Sequence record: PZ179880.1
Origin: a phage
Strand: one strand, 5' to 3'
Length of the DNA: 64,000 bases
Positions 1 to 5,834 of the stretch are shown piece by piece (position 1 is the stretch's first letter; the number at the start of each line of letters is the position of its first letter). Below the pieces are notes generated by a model, which was given only the letters and a program-made list of their open reading frames with translations, had not been told where the DNA came from and made no database searches. The position numbers were made by a program, and so were the translations under genes.

Positions 1-359
1 AAGGCACCGGGAAAAAGAGCATTCAAATTAAATTGACGATTCAACAGAGCGTCAATAGAATCACCCAATGCTGTAACAGCTACAAAATTATAATCTTCCT
101 TTAATTTGTTAATTACACACAGGGCATCTTTATACGGAGACAAGTAACGAATAAAATCTGAACGATTGTATTTTTCAATTAACTTGACGCCAAGTTCTTC
201 GTCACAATTAAAGAGTTTACCTGGAGAAATAAATTTCTCATCTTGGATCATTTTTAAAATATGTTCTAATGGAAGATTATATTTCTGAGCAAAATAAGGA
301 AGGCCTGATTGCCAGCTTAAACATACTCCATCAATATCAGTCAAAATAGTTGGCTTCAT
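1..359 (-). CDS. HAD-superfamily hydrolase-like protein, N-terminal part (3' end outside window)
   Basis: Minus-strand frame from ATG at 357-359 running off the window start; N-terminal LTDIDGV resembles HAD motif I; ATGA overlap with upstream stop. Confidence 0.4.
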   Translation of the reverse strand, partial: MKPTILTDIDGVCLSWQSGLPYFAQKYNLPLEHILKMIQDEKFISPGKLFNCDEELGVKLIEKYNRSDFIRYLSPYKDALCVINKLKEDYNFVAVTALGDSIDALLNRQFNLNALFPGA

Positions 360-820
360 AGAGAGTCTCTTAATAGGTTTAACACATCAATAAATTCAGC
401 TTCGGTTAATATTGTATCATCTTTTGTTAGACCACTAGCCATGCTGTGCTTCAAAACTTTTCCTTTCGAGGCTTGTAATGCATCACGAAAGCCCTTGTTT
501 TGGATCGCTGCTTCAAAGTATGCATTTGTGTATAATTCTTTCCACGCTGGAGAGTATCTTGAAAACGGAACTCCAAGCCAGAAGAGGGTCCCACGGTCTT
601 GAGCTCTAGCATAAGACCTTCCAGCTTGTTGGGCGGCAAGCCCGGATAACCCAAATATACGACGTTGTTGTTCAACATTTTTCACCTTACATCCTTGAAG
701 GAATCCTTCGAGACCTCCAAATTGGATACCATCCATAACGAAAGGCCATTGGGCGAAATTGCTTAATGCACATGATGGCCATCTAAAATTGCTTCTTATC
801 TCTAGCTCAGACATTTTCAA
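356..820 (-). CDS. NADAR (YbiA-like) domain protein
   Basis: 154-aa ORF; segment SNFAQWPFVMDGIQFGGLEGFLQGCKV resembles the NADAR/YbiA signature; by-eye assignment. Confidence 0.45.
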   Translation of the reverse strand: MKMSELEIRSNFRWPSCALSNFAQWPFVMDGIQFGGLEGFLQGCKVKNVEQQRRIFGLSGLAAQQAGRSYARAQDRGTLFWLGVPFSRYSPAWKELYTNAYFEAAIQNKGFRDALQASKGKVLKHSMASGLTKDDTILTEAEFIDVLNLLRDSL

Positions 821-1013
821 TACTTATAATTTCAACATCAGCCCAATGACCATAGCAAGGAAGACGAAATTCAACTGGCCAGTTAGGGTCCTTTTCTAAT
901 ATAATAGACTTAACTTGTGGTTCTTCATGTTCATCGGTATACGGACCTTTATACGTTACTTTATATGTGACCTTAATGTACTGAATTCCAAAAATCTTAT
1001 TAATTATATTCAT
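807..1013 (-). CDS. hypothetical protein (68 aa)
   Basis: ORF in tightly packed minus-strand array, overlaps neighbours by a few nt. Confidence 0.4.
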   Translation of the reverse strand: MNIINKIFGIQYIKVTYKVTYKGPYTDEHEEPQVKSIILEKDPNWPVEFRLPCYGHWADVEIISIENV

Positions 1014-1207
1014 ACTAATTCCTTTAATCCATAGATAGGAGATAATTCATCACCCATACGAAGGTCTTCATTTCCATCTACCCAGGAAACAATATAAGCT
1101 TCTTTTATTTGAACGTCTCTCCATTTAAATGCAGGCAAAACCTTAGAAATTAATCCAGGTATACCGACTCCCTTTAATTCAACAGTTTGACCTAAAAAGA
1201 ATTTCAT
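1010..1207 (-). CDS. hypothetical protein (65 aa)
   Basis: ORF, ATGA-type overlap with upstream gene. Confidence 0.4.
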   Translation of the reverse strand: MKFFLGQTVELKGVGIPGLISKVLPAFKWRDVQIKEAYIVSWVDGNEDLRMGDELSPIYGLKELV

Positions 1208-1545
1208 TAGAACCTCATCTGAAAACCATGCGATTTAACATTACCACCACCAATGTCAGAAATGTTAATTTCACGCGCAATTGAAGGGTCAATGTCAATT
1301 TCACGGTTGAGTTTAGTGATAGCTAGAGTATCACGCCCATTTACAGTACGGAACTCTAAAGGGCAGACTACATTAACGTAGTTTTTAATCGATTCACTGG
1401 TAGGTTGCAAATGAGCAGGAAGGCCTTTAGGCGCCTTTGAGAAAACCACTTCACAGAAATTTTTGCGGGTATCAAAATAAGTAGTCATAAACATAGTATT
1501 TTCCTCAGTAAGGGGCCGAAGCCCCTGTTTTATTTTAAATATCAA
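1207..1545 (-). CDS. hypothetical protein (probable start at internal Met near 1500)
   Basis: ORF; GAGGAAAA Shine-Dalgarno precedes the internal ATG (MFMTTYF...); UUCG hairpin just upstream. Confidence 0.4.
   Translation of the reverse strand: MIFKIKQGLRPLTEENTMFMTTYFDTRKNFCEVVFSKAPKGLPAHLQPTSESIKNYVNVVCPLEFRTVNGRDTLAITKLNREIDIDPSIAREINISDIGGGNVKSHGFQMRF
1512..1525 (-). other. intercistronic UUCG-tetraloop hairpin
   Basis: GGGGC-UUCG-GCCCC 10 nt before SD of next ORF; T-run follows on plus strand. Confidence 0.45.
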
Positions 1546-1900
1546 ATTCGTTAAGAACTACATCAAAGATTGCTTCAAGATGCTCAGGTTTAGCTCTGTT
1601 ACTCAAAATATGACGAATCCAAGTTTTAACTAGAAGCTTACGATTGACGCCATTCCAGCAAGGATGAGTCCCTAAATCACGTTGACGAAAATCATCATCC
1701 AGAGCGATTTTGAAAGAAGAACCTTCTTTCGTGATTGAAACCGTGATGCCATTTTCAAATCGCATATAAACGTAGTTAGGAGTCATATACTGTTCAATTT
1801 CGCATACTGATCCATTTTGATGTTTCCAAAGGCAAATAGTATCAATAGAACCTGCAATACCGTTAGAAACATATTTACGTTCAAAGTTGATGTAGTTCAT
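1535..1900 (-). CDS. hypothetical protein (121 aa)
   Basis: ORF downstream of early promoter at ~1935-1966. Confidence 0.45.
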   Translation of the reverse strand: MNYINFERKYVSNGIAGSIDTICLWKHQNGSVCEIEQYMTPNYVYMRFENGITVSITKEGSSFKIALDDDFRQRDLGTHPCWNGVNRKLLVKTWIRHILSNRAKPEHLEAIFDVVLNEFDI

Positions 1901-1934
1901 TTTTATTCTCCAAGATGTTTAATTGCGGTACAGG

Positions 1935-1966
1935 TATATAATATCATATCCTGTACCAAAGTAAAC
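1935..1966 (-). promoter_or_regulatory. early promoter with stem-loop (PeSL-type)
   Basis: Minus-strand GTTTAC -35, 17-bp spacer, TATTAT; 8-bp inverted repeat GGTACAGG/CCTGTACC spans the -10. Confidence 0.5.
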
Positions 1967-1968
1967 AA

Positions 1969-2301
1969 TTATTTTACTACTTTCCAGTGCTGCATGTCAA
2001 GTTTGCCAACTTTTTTCATCTTCTCAATTAAGCGTTCTGCACGTTGGCGAGCTGTAACATAATACCATTCACCTAATTCATTTTGTTCAATTTTTCCAAC
2101 GATTACTGTATTCAATTCATAAATCCAACCAGTAAAGAAATTATGAACTTGGATTGTAAAGGTGAAATCTGTTCCCATACCTTCTGTTGTTTCTACTTCA
2201 ATAATATCACCTTCAACTGCCATTAAGAACCACATAGTTTCATCATATTTACCATTGAAGCATTTAGTTTTAACTGTAGCGTTCAGATTAATCGTTTTCA
2301 T
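1969..2301 (-). CDS. hypothetical protein (110 aa)
   Basis: ORF downstream of early promoter at ~2322-2358. Confidence 0.45.
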   Translation of the reverse strand: MKTINLNATVKTKCFNGKYDETMWFLMAVEGDIIEVETTEGMGTDFTFTIQVHNFFTGWIYELNTVIVGKIEQNELGEWYYVTARQRAERLIEKMKKVGKLDMQHWKVVK

Positions 2302-2321
2302 TTTATTCTCCTTTGTTTGTG

Positions 2322-2358
2322 TAAGATAATACTATCACAAAGGAACTATACTGTAAAC
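2322..2358 (-). promoter_or_regulatory. early promoter
   Basis: GTTTAC -35 and TAGTAT/TATTAT -10 on minus strand. Confidence 0.45.
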
Positions 2359-2382
2359 AACTTTGTGCAATCTTTGGAAAAT

Positions 2383-2406
2383 AAAAAAGGACTCCCGAAG
2401 GAGTCC
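2383..2406 (-). terminator. intrinsic terminator (UUCG tetraloop hairpin + U-run)
   Basis: mRNA GGACUCC-UUCG-GGAGUCC followed by UUUUUU; identical to 55795-55818. Confidence 0.65.
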
Positions 2407-2411
2407 TCAAC

Positions 2412-2588
2412 TTATGCTTTCTGCTTACCAAAACGAGAAGCATCATCTCGAAGAACCGCACGTGCTCGGCGCATGATCTTCTCAACAGTTTGATTGATAC
2501 GAGAGTTCGACCCACGCTTGTAACCAGCGCGTTTAGAATCACCAACTTTCTTTTCAACTGCTTTCTTTGCTTTAGCTTGTTTTGCCAT
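2412..2588 (-). CDS. small highly basic protein (58 aa from MAKQAK; ORF track extends to 2630)
   Basis: Lys/Arg-rich ORF followed by UUCG-hairpin terminator at 2383-2406. Confidence 0.4.
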   Translation of the reverse strand: MAKQAKAKKAVEKKVGDSKRAGYKRGSNSRINQTVEKIMRRARAVLRDDASRFGKQKA

Positions 2589-2827
2589 TATAAATTCTCT
2601 TTTAAATGAAAATGCAGGACTTATTGGCATTGCCTGCGAAAGCCCTCAAGGGGGTACTTAGGTTTTGAATATTTACCGACAGGATAACCATAAACCTCGT
2701 CAACATTCAAGAGGTACACCGTAAAACTGCCGGGGTCTTAAAACTATAATGATTCGCAAATCATTAATCAGACAGTTCGACGGCTCCTCGATTTTAGCTC
2801 ACACTAAGGCAGTGAATCTCCAATAAA

Positions 2828-3076
2828 TTACTTCAGTGTTACCACAAAGTGACGAACTGCTTTTCGTGCAGCAGAAGCCAGAGGCTTAGCATACTTAAGT
2901 TCATCTTTTTCCTGGAGCTCAGCAGCTAATGCAGTTTGAGCAGGATTCAGATGTTTGAAATAACGCAGGATTTCAAGAGCTTCGGCTTCAACATCAATAG
3001 ATGCGCCATAGTTTTCGTGACCATTATTCCATGCGTTTCGTTGCAGTTCAAGAGCGTGTTGTAATTGTTTAATCAT
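2828..3076 (-). CDS. rIII: lysis-inhibition accessory protein rIII
   Basis: 82 aa, position immediately downstream of gene 31 as in T4. Confidence 0.7.
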   Translation of the reverse strand: MIKQLQHALELQRNAWNNGHENYGASIDVEAEALEILRYFKHLNPAQTALAAELQEKDELKYAKPLASAARKAVRHFVVTLK

Positions 3077-3215
3077 TTAAAAATTCTCGTTAGAGATTAA
3101 AACTCGGTAGTCACGTTCTTCTGAATTTCATCTTCTTTCGACAGATCTCTCAGTTGTAGACTACCACATAGAATTGTTCGGTTAACTTATTATTCCGACA
3201 CCCAATTCATATTAT

Positions 3216-3223
3216 TATTTATA
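3216..3223 (-). promoter_or_regulatory. late promoter-like TATAAATA upstream of rIII
   Basis: Exact TATAAATA on minus strand abutting gene 31 stop. Confidence 0.4.
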
Positions 3224-3559
3224 TCACTTATAAAGACATGGAATAGCTTTATAGTGACAGGTAACGAATTTTTGTTTAATTTCTTTTGGCTGCTTAAGAC
3301 CCAGAGCTACAAAAGGATGCGGAACGTTTCGAATTTGACCAACTGGAAGAGAAGTCAAATCACCAACTTCGCAGAAACCTTCAGGAACATCAGGACCAAC
3401 AGAGTGAATTACACACAGTTCAGGAACTTCACCTTGAACACGTTTACCGATAATAAGTCCTGATTCTGTAACTTCTTCATCACCGGCTTGTGCAGGTTCA
3501 GAAACTAAAATAACATATTCACCGACAGCACGAATTGGTAGCTGTTGTACTTCAGACAT
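3224..3559 (-). CDS. 31: co-chaperonin gp31 (GroES-like) for capsid folding
   Basis: 111 aa; sequence matches remembered T4 gp31; synteny cd-31-rIII. Confidence 0.85.
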
Positions 3560-3589
3560 CGTTTTTCCTTTTTGTTAACAGATGAATTA

Positions 3590-3616
3590 ATAATAACAAA
3601 TAATTCTTAAAGCATT
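3590..3616 (-). promoter_or_regulatory. MotA-dependent middle promoter for gene 31
   Basis: Minus-strand AAATGCTTTA, 12-bp spacer, TATTAT; ~30 nt before ATG. Confidence 0.5.
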
Positions 3617-3924
3617 TATTTACCAATAAATTGAAGCAAATGCTCAACTTTCATACCATTAACGGAAATCAATTTGTCAATAGAAAAACCTCGCCATGCA
3701 CCAAGCTCAACATCAAATACTGGAATCATATCAGTAGATTCTTTCCGAGTAGATTCAGTCAATTTACCAGTTTGCATGGTTGGCATAAAGTCAGCATCAC
3801 GAGTACCTTTCATAGTACGAATAGTACCATCAGACTTTTCAAAAACCACGTTTGAAATACCCATGGACAATTTAGTTTTCAAAATTTCACGAATTGCTAC
3901 TTTTTGTTCAGTCGTCAGTTTCAT
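3616..3924 (-). CDS. hypothetical protein (31.1-like position)
   Basis: 102-aa ORF between cd and 31. Confidence 0.45.
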   Translation of the reverse strand: MKLTTEQKVAIREILKTKLSMGISNVVFEKSDGTIRTMKGTRDADFMPTMQTGKLTESTRKESTDMIPVFDVELGAWRGFSIDKLISVNGMKVEHLLQFIGK

Positions 3925-4161
3925 TTATTTACCTATCACAGTTTTAATATGAGTTGTTCCACGTTCTTTAAGAGTGGAAAGCAATTTTTGGCATTTTTCT
4001 AAATCAGATTTCCAACTATGCGGTCTATCAATACAAACCCAGTTTGACTTATAATACTGCCTCCATTTAGAGAAAAAATACTTCTTATACTCTACAACAA
4101 ATGAAATGTTCTCGTTGGAATAAGAACTAATTGCTGTAAGTTGTACCAAACGAAATTTCAT
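3925..4161 (-). CDS. hypothetical protein (31.2-like position)
   Basis: 78-aa ORF, abuts cd stop. Confidence 0.45.
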   Translation of the reverse strand: MKFRLVQLTAISSYSNENISFVVEYKKYFFSKWRQYYKSNWVCIDRPHSWKSDLEKCQKLLSTLKERGTTHIKTVIGK

Positions 4162-4742
4162 TATTCACCACAGAATTCGTTGATATTTTCCCAGTTTAAC
4201 TTATTCAAGTTTTTCTTAGGAACATTAAACACTTCAATACCCGCATTTCGCAGAATATCATCCCAGCCAGGTTTATTTTTATCGTATGTTTCGCAATAAA
4301 CCAGCTTTTTAATTCCAGATTGAGCTATCGCTTTTGCACAATCTGGGCAAGGAGAAAGTGTTACATACATAGTAGCACCTTCAATTGAAGAACCATTTCG
4401 TGCAGCAAACAAAATCGCATTTAGTTCAGCATGAATTTCATTTTTAGACGACCATTCAGAGTGAGCGCTACGGTGTTCTTTCGCCAAGACAAAACGATCA
4501 GTTGAACCAAATGATACACATTCGGGCTTATGACCTTGAATGATAGTATGTTTAGGCTTATTCAGCAACCAACCTTGCTCGGCAGCATAATCACAGCAGT
4601 TCACACCACCTGCAGGTGAACCATTATATCCAGTAGAAATAATACGTCCATTCTTTTCAATTACTGCTCCTACTTTCCAGGAGCAACATTTTGATTCTTG
4701 TGATACTAAATATGCAATTTGAAGTACTGTACTCGCTTTCAT
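4161..4742 (-). CDS. cd: dCMP deaminase
   Basis: 193 aa; zinc-binding deaminase motifs HAELNAI and SPCPDCAKAI. Confidence 0.9.
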   Translation of the reverse strand: MKASTVLQIAYLVSQESKCCSWKVGAVIEKNGRIISTGYNGSPAGGVNCCDYAAEQGWLLNKPKHTIIQGHKPECVSFGSTDRFVLAKEHRSAHSEWSSKNEIHAELNAILFAARNGSSIEGATMYVTLSPCPDCAKAIAQSGIKKLVYCETYDKNKPGWDDILRNAGIEVFNVPKKNLNKLNWENINEFCGE

Positions 4743-5077
4743 TTCATAATCACCAGATAAGCAGATTTAGCAGTTTCAACACGATAAATTTCGTGACGAA
4801 GTTTAGTTATACTTTTAATAACAGAACTAATTATATTCTGCCCATCTTTAAAGCGGTTTTTCTTATCAATAAAAATTGCGCCAACCATCTTTTTGTGAAG
4901 CTCAACCGGATACTTCGTCACAATAATAGCATCATACACAGAAGGATGAATACTATTCACCAGAGTATCATTCATTAAAGTTATTCTAATGAACTGTGCT
5001 GTTTCAGAATCAAGCGCTCTATGATCGCCAGTATCATTTTCAAGACAATTATCAAATATATCAGTTAAATTCATCAT
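4739..5077 (-). CDS. hypothetical protein (112 aa)
   Basis: ORF, ATGA overlap with cd. Confidence 0.45.
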   Translation of the reverse strand: MMNLTDIFDNCLENDTGDHRALDSETAQFIRITLMNDTLVNSIHPSVYDAIIVTKYPVELHKKMVGAIFIDKKNRFKDGQNIISSVIKSITKLRHEIYRVETAKSAYLVIMK

Positions 5078-5313: not shown

Positions 5314-5834
5314 GTTGATCCTAGCTCCTTACTTTCAACATTTTTAACTAATTTGACAGAAACTAATTCAGCATCTTGGGTAATCATTACCGGACCTTCT
5401 TCATACTCTTCAAGATATTCTAGAGCTTTCTTTTTAGCTTCTTCCTTCGTATCAGTTTGAGCATAGATATAAAACATACAACCAGTAATACCTACTACTT
5501 TCCACTTAATTTCTTTATCAGTTTTAATTTCAAATTTACTTACAGAATCATCTTTTTGAACTTCTTCGAAAAAAGAATATTCTAACATATAAGCAATTGA
5601 AAATAACGGGCTAACTTTATAGGATTCACCCATTACATCAACAGCTTTATACCAACAATCATCAATTTCACGTTTAATGCTAATAACATTTTTCGCAGGA
5701 TCTATTTTTACTTTAAATGAATTTTCCCCAATAAACTGGGCAATTCGTTTATTAGCCCCGCAAGTTTCATTAAAAATATCTTTATACCCAGTTTTAAAGC
5801 GATAAACCTTATCTTCTTCAAACCATTCGCTCAT
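5307..5834 (-). CDS. hypothetical protein (175 aa)
   Basis: ORF downstream of early promoter ~5856-5894. Confidence 0.45.
   Translation of the reverse strand: MSEWFEEDKVYRFKTGYKDIFNETCGANKRIAQFIGENSFKVKIDPAKNVISIKREIDDCWYKAVDVMGESYKVSPLFSIAYMLEYSFFEEVQKDDSVSKFEIKTDKEIKWKVVGITGCMFYIYAQTDTKEEAKKKALEYLEEYEEGPVMITQDAELVSVKLVKNVESKELGSTC

Follow-up and report, generated by a model that had tools for sequence, protein, structure and literature searches.

Two overlapping genes at the start of a T4-like phage genome raise the question of whether the phage carries an enzyme that undoes a host defence by itself, or one that works together with the product of the neighbouring gene. They lie in the first 820 nucleotides of the window, by which we mean the whole 64,000-nucleotide stretch of phage DNA that was analysed (record PZ179880.1). 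An earlier note, made from the letters of the sequence, had read one gene as encoding a NADAR-like protein that could reverse DNA ADP-ribosylation imposed by DarT-type toxins, the truncated gene next to it as encoding a HAD-like hydrolase, and the pair as a possible module for nucleotide or ADP-ribose processing. We are highly confident that the first of these genes is adfN, which is gene 30.3 on the T4 map, and that it encodes a stand-alone ('orphan') NADAR enzyme with which the phage escapes DarTG1. In this analysis the assignment is based on sequence identity, the fold and the conserved residues, together with gene organisation and synteny. The activity of AdfN, its specificity for guanine and the DarTG1 phenotype are known from published work with the T4 protein, which is 99% identical.

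Genomic setting and start codon of adfN

The window is a Tequatrovirus (T4-like) genome. A megablast search with positions 1..3000 matched 784 phage records; the best are Tequatrovirus genomes, and many T4-like phages are 97-98% identical in DNA. The first 5 kb hold a run of minus-strand genes that matches the T4 map, in the order dCMP deaminase, 31.2, 31.1, gp31, rIII, 30.9 to 30.1, and then ligase.

The peptide that had been quoted as NADAR-like, SNFAQWPFVMDGIQFGGLEGFLQGCKV, is found in the minus-strand ORF that the ORF list gives as 356..820. Judged by annotation, residue numbering and gene overlap, the true start of adfN is the ATG at 814..812 (MSELEIR..., 152 aa) and not the TTG at 820, because the T4 and RB14 annotations use the same start (459 nt, 152 aa), the published numbering of E36 and K43 fits no other start, and the stop codon of gene 30.4 overlaps this ATG as ATGTCTGA. 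Given this overlap, translation of adfN is probably coupled to that of 30.4. No Shine-Dalgarno sequence precedes the adfN ATG. At the other end of the gene, the ATGA at 356..359 joins the stop codon of adfN to the start codon of gene 30.2, and both genes have the same orientation. The coordinates of these features are collected in Table 1.

In a scan of positions 1..3200, sigma-70 promoters and terminators were as numerous as expected from shuffled sequence; the scan, which does not cover T4 middle and late promoters, is thus uninformative on the transcription unit. An overlapping ORF, 30.3' (451..678), was considered as a part of the system and given no weight: the frame is open in relatives and its start codon is not conserved.

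Table 1. Features of the adfN locus (all on the minus strand; positions are those of the window)
Feature	Coordinates	Strand	Basis or remark
adfN (T4 gene 30.3), CDS including stop codon	356..814	-	152 aa, NADAR-family DNA ADP-ribosylglycohydrolase; PF08010, T4 and RB14 annotations
Gene 30.2, first 119 codons, predicted HAD-superfamily hydrolase	1..359	-	Cut by the edge of the window
Gene 30.4	807..1013	-	68 aa, immediately upstream of adfN; ORF list
AdfN E36 codon (GAA), catalytic glutamate	707..709	-	The same in all 62 aligned sequences; pairs with the Glu in YbiA 'SEHYFQAQK'
AdfN K43 codon (AAG), second residue needed for activity	686..688	-	At least 90% conserved; aligns with the YbiA Lys
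AdfN H123 codon (CAC), last-strand histidine	446..448	-	Invariant in the alignment; follows predicted strand 120-122
AdfN M125 codon, sole difference from T4 AdfN (I125M)	440..442	-	Pairwise comparison with T4 gp30.3
AdfN C-terminal helix, residues 138-151, intact	359..400	-	AlphaFold2 model; segment absent from the inactive RB69 allele
gp30.2 HAD motif I, D8-I-D10-G-V (DIDGV, residues 8-12)	324..338	-	T7, D8, D10 and G11 invariant among homologues
gp30.2 HAD motif II threonine, T96	72..74	-	Invariant T96 within VAVTALG

Predicted fold and conserved residues of AdfN

AdfN of the window shares 151 of its 152 residues with T4 gp30.3, and that the ORF is far beyond chance is confirmed on sequence grounds. 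Homologues were found by tblastn in 1511 phage records, which span T4-like phages of Escherichia, Klebsiella, Aeromonas, Acinetobacter, Vibrio and others. The protein falls in PHROG 652, a PHROG of unknown function, and has no match among the NCBIfam models.

Searches against NADAR and HAD profiles, as proposed in the earlier note, gave a divided answer. The Pfam family PF08010 ('Bacteriophage protein GP30.3') was matched over its entire length (profile positions 1-138 of 138) with a score of 235.2 bits (E=2.3e-70; the cut-off is 36), whereas the gp30.2 fragment matched no HAD model and AdfN did not match the Pfam NADAR family PF08719 at E<=1. PF08719 was reached by 8 of the 62 family members that we aligned (best E=1.5e-7). 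Membership of AdfN in the NADAR superfamily therefore rests on its fold, on profile-profile comparison and on these family members. When the sequences in the PDB were searched with single sequences, both AdfN and gp30.2 gave chance matches alone, so profiles and structure prediction were needed.

The AlphaFold2 model of AdfN (pLDDT 93.5, pTM 0.89) has the alpha+beta fold of YbiA, with a helical core and flanking small beta-hairpins. In a Foldseek search of the PDB the best match was Escherichia coli YbiA (2b3w; E=1.4e-4, TM 0.68), and the other two were 8bau, the Phytophthora PnNADAR with ADP-ribose, and 8bat, the Geobacter lovleyi GlNADAR/DarG1. These three NADAR structures are the only significant or near-significant matches, all further ones having E>4. 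A profile of the AdfN family also matches YbiA at the sequence level (E=0.006), with the SNFA and E...Q..K motifs in register, and hhalign relates the family to YbiA with a probability of 94% (residues 29-82 of the YbiA sequence used there agree with the profile match). The claim of NADAR identity is thus borne out by PF08010, by the near identity to T4 gp30.3 and by the modelled fold.

The alignment comprised 62 sequences, AdfN of the window together with metagenomic and genomic homologues. Invariant in all of them are P13, A16, L17, S18, N19, F20, F25, E36, G37, F38, Q40, H123, T134, L136 and T137, and K43 is conserved in at least 90%. AdfN thereby has both the SNF motif (S18-N19-F20) and the residues of the E-x-F/Y-x-Q-x-x-K helix (E36, Q40, K43). 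The hhalign alignment stops at AdfN K122 and YbiA V124; an ungapped extension places H123 opposite YbiA E125.

The residue at this last-strand position differs among NADARs: it is Glu in the YbiA family, Asp in DarG1 and BC4488, and His in phage NADARs (PMC11125620, PMC12945103). De Souza and Aravind, as cited in later papers, defined phage NADARs by this replacement of the last-strand Glu or Asp with His. The earlier note named absence of the conserved catalytic Glu as grounds for rejecting the assignment. In AdfN E36 is present, whereas the last-strand Glu of the YbiA type is a His (H123). A His at this position is usual in the phage clade and does not preclude activity, so absence of a 'catalytic Glu' is ambiguous as an argument against the assignment.

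AdfN of the window has the same length as T4 AdfN, the same gene position and the same overlaps with 30.4 and 30.2, and it retains E36, K43, H123 and the C-terminal helix. The allele differs by I125M and comes from another Tequatrovirus isolate, whose DNA matches the nearest records at about 97-98% identity. Because position 125, two residues after H123, is variable in the family, we infer that the change is neutral. The helix at residues 138-151 distinguishes the allele from that of RB69, which is orthologous and has the same gene position; there a frameshift removes the last 15 residues, including this helix, and DarTG1 is effective against RB69 (PMC11825919). The AdfN of the window is full length and, by analogy with the T4 protein, is very probably an active G-ADPr hydrolase.

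AdfN compared with other NADARs

DarG1, the antitoxin of DarTG1 (represented by the Geobacter lovleyi NADAR, 8bat), has the same fold as AdfN and catalyses the same reaction, the hydrolysis of guanine-N2-ADP-ribose in DNA, as published for T4 AdfN. However, AdfN is an orphan that consists of the core domain alone, whereas extra N-terminal elements belong to DarG1; the last-strand catalytic position is His in AdfN and Asp in DarG1; and T4 AdfN is published to be no antitoxin in uninfected cells. No DarT1 toxin gene lies beside adfN, whose neighbours are 30.4 and the HAD-like gene 30.2; PMC11825919 likewise describes the gene as an orphan. A role as a DarG1-type antitoxin was considered and rejected, because adfN has no toxin gene next to it and AdfN has another catalytic residue.

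YbiA of E. coli (PF08719), the closest structural match, shares the SNFA...E...Q..K motif with AdfN, but the two proteins are only about 18-24% identical and YbiA E125 is replaced by His. Furthermore, the roles assigned to YbiA are swarming motility and the detoxification of riboflavin intermediates, and counter-defence in phages is not among them (PMC11125620). One may ask, then, whether the main substrates of the phage NADAR are small molecules, either soluble immune signals derived from ADP-ribose or intermediates of the riboflavin pathway. YbiA is an N-glycosidase of such riboflavin intermediates, and some phages have a NADAR gene beside genes for NAD salvage. Against these points stand the direct demonstration that the T4 protein removes ADP-ribose from DNA, and a DarTG1 phenotype that is strong and specific. 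Gene 30.3 is neutral on RexAB and RnlAB hosts and has no other phenotype among the transposon conditions examined. We regard small molecules as very improbable main substrates and favour DNA.

Published experiments on T4 AdfN

Work published between 2023 and 2026 has already established what AdfN is, how it folds, which substrate it acts on and that it counters DarTG1. Schuller et al. (2023) described the guanine ADP-ribosylation by DarT1 and its reversal by NADARs. Johannesman et al. (Nat Commun 2025, PMC11825919) mapped the DarTG1 resistance of T-even phages to gene 30.3 and renamed it adfN. Deletion of the gene makes T4 sensitive to DarTG1, a defect that adfN supplied by itself in trans corrects completely, and adfN on a plasmid rescues RB69; in T-even infection the gene is both necessary and sufficient for resistance (PMC11825919). 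In the same study purified T4 AdfN stripped ADP-ribose from DarT1-modified DNA, AdfN(E36A) was inactive, and E36A, K43A and a C-terminal truncation were all impaired, and no interaction of AdfN with DarT1 was found in a two-hybrid assay (PMC11825919).

As to specificity, purified T4 gp30.3 hydrolyses G-ADPr and not T-ADPr (Toxins 2024, PMC11125620), and C-ADPr is not removed by it (Toxins 2026, PMC12945103). The DarTG1 phenotype of 30.3 has been confirmed independently in a transposon screen of T4 (HIDEN-SEQ preprint). The proposal that a phage NADAR could reverse DNA ADP-ribosylation imposed by DarT has therefore already been demonstrated for the T4 protein.

Two observations make it incomplete to say that the enzyme alone suffices. 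T4 gp30.3 cannot rescue uninfected E. coli from DarT1 (Toxins 2024, PMC11125620), and T5 and Bas25 are only weakly rescued by AdfN-T4 (PMC11825919). A T-even factor or context in addition to AdfN-T4 appears to be required.

Gene 30.2 as a predicted HAD-like phosphohydrolase

The ORF at 1..359 on the minus strand, with a translation that begins MKPTILTDIDGV, corresponds to codons 1-119 of the 278-codon gene 30.2 and is identical to T4 gp30.2 at 119 of 119 residues. The gp30.2 homologues have, without variation, HAD motif I (T7-D8-x-D10-G11), motif II (T96 in VAVTALG), motif III (S131-K132) and motif IV (D152-D153). Motifs I and II lie inside the window; K132 and D152-D153 lie beyond its edge and were read from full-length homologues, including that of T4. 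Most homologues have 196-209 residues, and the T4-type proteins are longer by a C-terminal tail of about 80 residues.

A model of a homologue that is 88% identical to gp30.2 (pLDDT 76 overall) contains a Rossmann-like HAD core with a cap insertion. Confidence is high for the core and low for the helical cap that separates motifs I and II. The model resembles the capped HAD phosphatases PH1655 (2hoq), a beta-phosphoglucomutase-like protein (3e58) and the pyrimidine 5'-nucleotidase SDT1 (3opx), which have in common with gp30.2 the Rossmann-like core, a helical cap after motif I and four catalytic motifs. However, identity to these proteins is at most 20%, the T4-type protein has its additional tail, and no curated HAD model was reached from gp30.2. 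Neither the fragment in the window nor full-length T4 gp30.2 matched any Pfam or NCBIfam model, those for HAD proteins included, and the protein belongs to PHROG 420, which is of unknown function. Single homologues gave weak matches to PF00702 (E=0.0047) and NT5C (E=0.15), and there were profile hints below the threshold to a 5'(3')-deoxyribonucleotidase (E=0.7) and to the phosphatase domain of PNKP (E=0.17). A search of the literature on gp30.2 found no paper.

The HAD-like character that the earlier note saw in a single motif therefore holds for motifs I-IV and for the modelled fold, and fails for curated sequence models of the superfamily. We predict that gp30.2 is a capped HAD-superfamily phosphohydrolase, an assignment supported structurally, and we infer that it may be an active phosphatase.

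Throughout the T4-like phages gene 30.2 tracks the DNA ligase gene, its constant neighbour. Among 80 viral-contig loci that encode AdfN homologues, a 30.2 homologue was found within 6 kb in 20, and in 20 of these 20 the ligase gene follows 30.2, either directly or with 30.1 or small ORFs in between. The same arrangement of 30.2 and ligase is seen in T4-like phages of Acinetobacter, Vibrio and Aeromonas; in Aeromonas phage phiAS4 and Vibrio phage phi-Grn1, 30.2 lies just upstream of ligase with no AdfN nearby.

One reading of this linkage is that gp30.2, considered by itself, serves the DNA ligase gp30, either as a 3'-phosphatase that heals nucleic-acid ends or as a nucleotidase. The profile hints to PNKP, the deoxyribonucleotidase and NT5C point the same way, yet every one of them is below significance, and the synteny of 30.2 with ligase may be mere collinearity of T4-like core genomes. 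The cap matters here as well. A helical cap is typical of small-molecule HAD phosphatases, and DNA-end phosphatases such as Pnkp are cap-less; gp30.2, unlike Pnkp, has about 80 residues of cap between motifs I and II. In addition, gene 30.2 is non-essential on K-12 (HIDEN-SEQ transposon data). We consider a role in the service of ligase unlikely.

Evidence on a module of AdfN and gp30.2

The arrangement of the two genes suggests an attractive scheme, in which AdfN frees ADP-ribose and gp30.2 dephosphorylates it or its breakdown products; alternatively, gp30.2 could be the T-even factor that AdfN-T4 appears to need. The genes are co-oriented and overlap by ATGA, and the order AdfN-30.2-ligase is kept in Tequatrovirus, Mosigvirus and one T4-like phage of Acinetobacter. 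When four ORFs on each side of AdfN were clustered for 66 distant loci, 30.2-like HAD proteins were the most frequent neighbour family, although the count was 7 of 66. No conserved operon partner of AdfN emerged, this largest family included.

Genetic data speak against a joint function. In the T4 transposon experiment (HIDEN-SEQ supplementary sheet 'resampling_Control_vs_DarTG1'), insertions in 30.3 were lost on the DarTG1 host (log2FC -7.25, adjusted p 0), whereas those in 30.2 were neutral (log2FC -0.12, p=0.61), with 71 insertion sites undepleted. Two genes were significant in all, 30.3 and 30.4, and 30.2 is not among them. The full complementation and the rescue of RB69 by adfN in trans were likewise obtained with adfN alone.

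The distribution of the genes agrees with this. No 30.2 lies within 6 kb in 60 of the 80 AdfN loci, and where AdfN is absent from the neighbourhood 30.2 stays beside ligase. Homologues of 30.2 occur in 1440 phage records against 1511 for AdfN, and such similar counts are as expected for two accessory genes common to T4-like genomes. An ADP-ribose processing module of AdfN and gp30.2 is not supported, because 30.2 insertions are neutral on the DarTG1 host, adfN alone complements, most distant AdfN loci lack an adjacent 30.2, and 30.2 tracks the ligase gene instead. The module that had been proposed from the adjacency of the two genes is largely refuted as regards DarTG1, and we think a partnership of either kind highly improbable.

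Gene 30.4 in the transposon screen

The second significant gene on the DarTG1 host was 30.4 (log2FC -1.79, adjusted p 0.014). Its product has no Pfam match. The simplest explanation of the signal is polarity, or lost translational coupling to adfN, because of the overlap of the two genes, the lack of a Shine-Dalgarno sequence before adfN and the partial effect. A different explanation is that the signal is not merely polar and that gp30.4 is a T-even-specific helper of AdfN, for instance one that targets AdfN to replicating phage DNA. We rate such a helper as improbable and keep to polarity or coupling. Were gp30.4 such a helper, gp30.2 could act as a clean-up enzyme encoded in the same string of genes, and a dispensable one. 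The depletion of 30.4 is not discussed in the HIDEN-SEQ preprint.

Proposed mechanism and significance

In the mechanism that we propose, the DarT1 toxin of the host would ADP-ribosylate guanines in replicating phage DNA, and AdfN would hydrolyse the N-glycosidic bond that links ADP-ribose to the base. Unmodified DNA would be restored and replication allowed, and the phage would escape the DarTG1 toxin-antitoxin defence. AdfN would work catalytically on the DNA, without binding the toxin. The gene would be transcribed within an overlapping early or middle gene string, 30.4-30.3-30.2-30.1-30, in which 30.2 would be linked to adfN by synteny and not by a shared function.

The earlier note had correctly recognised an enzyme of phage counter-defence from raw sequence, and the analysis presented here contains nothing new on AdfN itself. 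It adds a negative answer on the partnership with a phosphatase, as well as a structural assignment of gp30.2, the product of a widely conserved T4 gene, to the HAD superfamily, together with the constant linkage of that gene to the ligase gene. It also draws attention to 30.4 as an overlooked hit of the transposon screen, which bears on why AdfN-T4 works in T-even infections alone.

Genes around adfN

In the T4 transposon screen published as a preprint, significant depletion on the DarTG1 host is confined to 30.3 and gene 30.4 (for 30.4, log2FC -1.79 with an adjusted p of 0.014); the preprint does not comment on 30.4. The product of 30.4 has no Pfam match. Given that the gene overlaps the start of adfN, polarity or disturbed coupling probably explains its depletion on DarTG1; a helper role for 30.4 on this host is less likely but conceivable.

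A second frame, annotated in T4 as gene 30.3', lies within adfN. In relatives whose AdfN is ~86% identical this frame is open, except in one (L014), where it is broken, and in most of them the ATG start is replaced by ATT, ATC or ACG. Given the replaced start codon and the broken frame, there is no good evidence that 30.3' is a real gene.

Between genes 30.7 and 30.6 there is a perfect GC-rich palindromic hairpin (AGGGGCCGAAGCCCCT), and the annotation of phage DalCa has a rho-independent terminator at the corresponding position. The string of genes from 30.6 to ligase may therefore be transcribed from a promoter of its own, located downstream of the hairpin.

Errors in public records and a discrepant construct length

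In phage DalCa and several database clusters, adfN is called from the internal Met27, giving a protein of 126 aa that lacks the invariant residues P13 to F25. The AdfN homologue of Acinetobacter phage phi1_092060 is labelled "DprA-like DNA recombination-mediator protein". Both are annotation errors. The T4 gp30.3 construct is given as "residues 1-208" in the methods of a published study (Toxins 2024; PMC11125620), which disagrees with the 152-aa gene 30.3; this numbering possibly includes tag residues.

Coordinates of the features discussed
Feature	Locus	Position	Strand	Remarks
Gene 30.4	Window	807..1013	-	68 aa; overlaps adfN start
ORF 30.3'	Window	451..678	-	75 codons; other frame within adfN
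Hairpin, 30.7/30.6	Window	1511..1526
adfN, Met27 call	L001 (DalCa)	3356..3736
AdfN homologue	L084 (phi1_092060)	1990..2472
30.2-ligase adjacency	L084	2474..4657
30.2-ligase adjacency	L085 (phage)	2483..4908
30.2-ligase adjacency	L086 (phage)	2489..4710
30.2-ligase adjacency	20 viral loci
gp30.2 C-terminal extension	L003 (T4)	5478..5720		T4 residues ~200-278; outside window

gp30.2 and DNA ligase

In Tequatrovirus, gp30.2 continues at its C terminus into an extra segment of ~80 aa (…FNPYNPYHPYQTHPFQTWNY…) in which Pro, Asn and aromatic residues are abundant; the ~200-aa homologues in other T4-like phages lack it. The HAD-like gp30.2 gene is followed directly by the gene for ATP-dependent DNA ligase in all T4-like genomes that were compared, and this arrangement is also kept in genomes where AdfN is encoded elsewhere. 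The constant adjacency is a hint that gp30.2 may have a function connected with ligase or with nucleotides.
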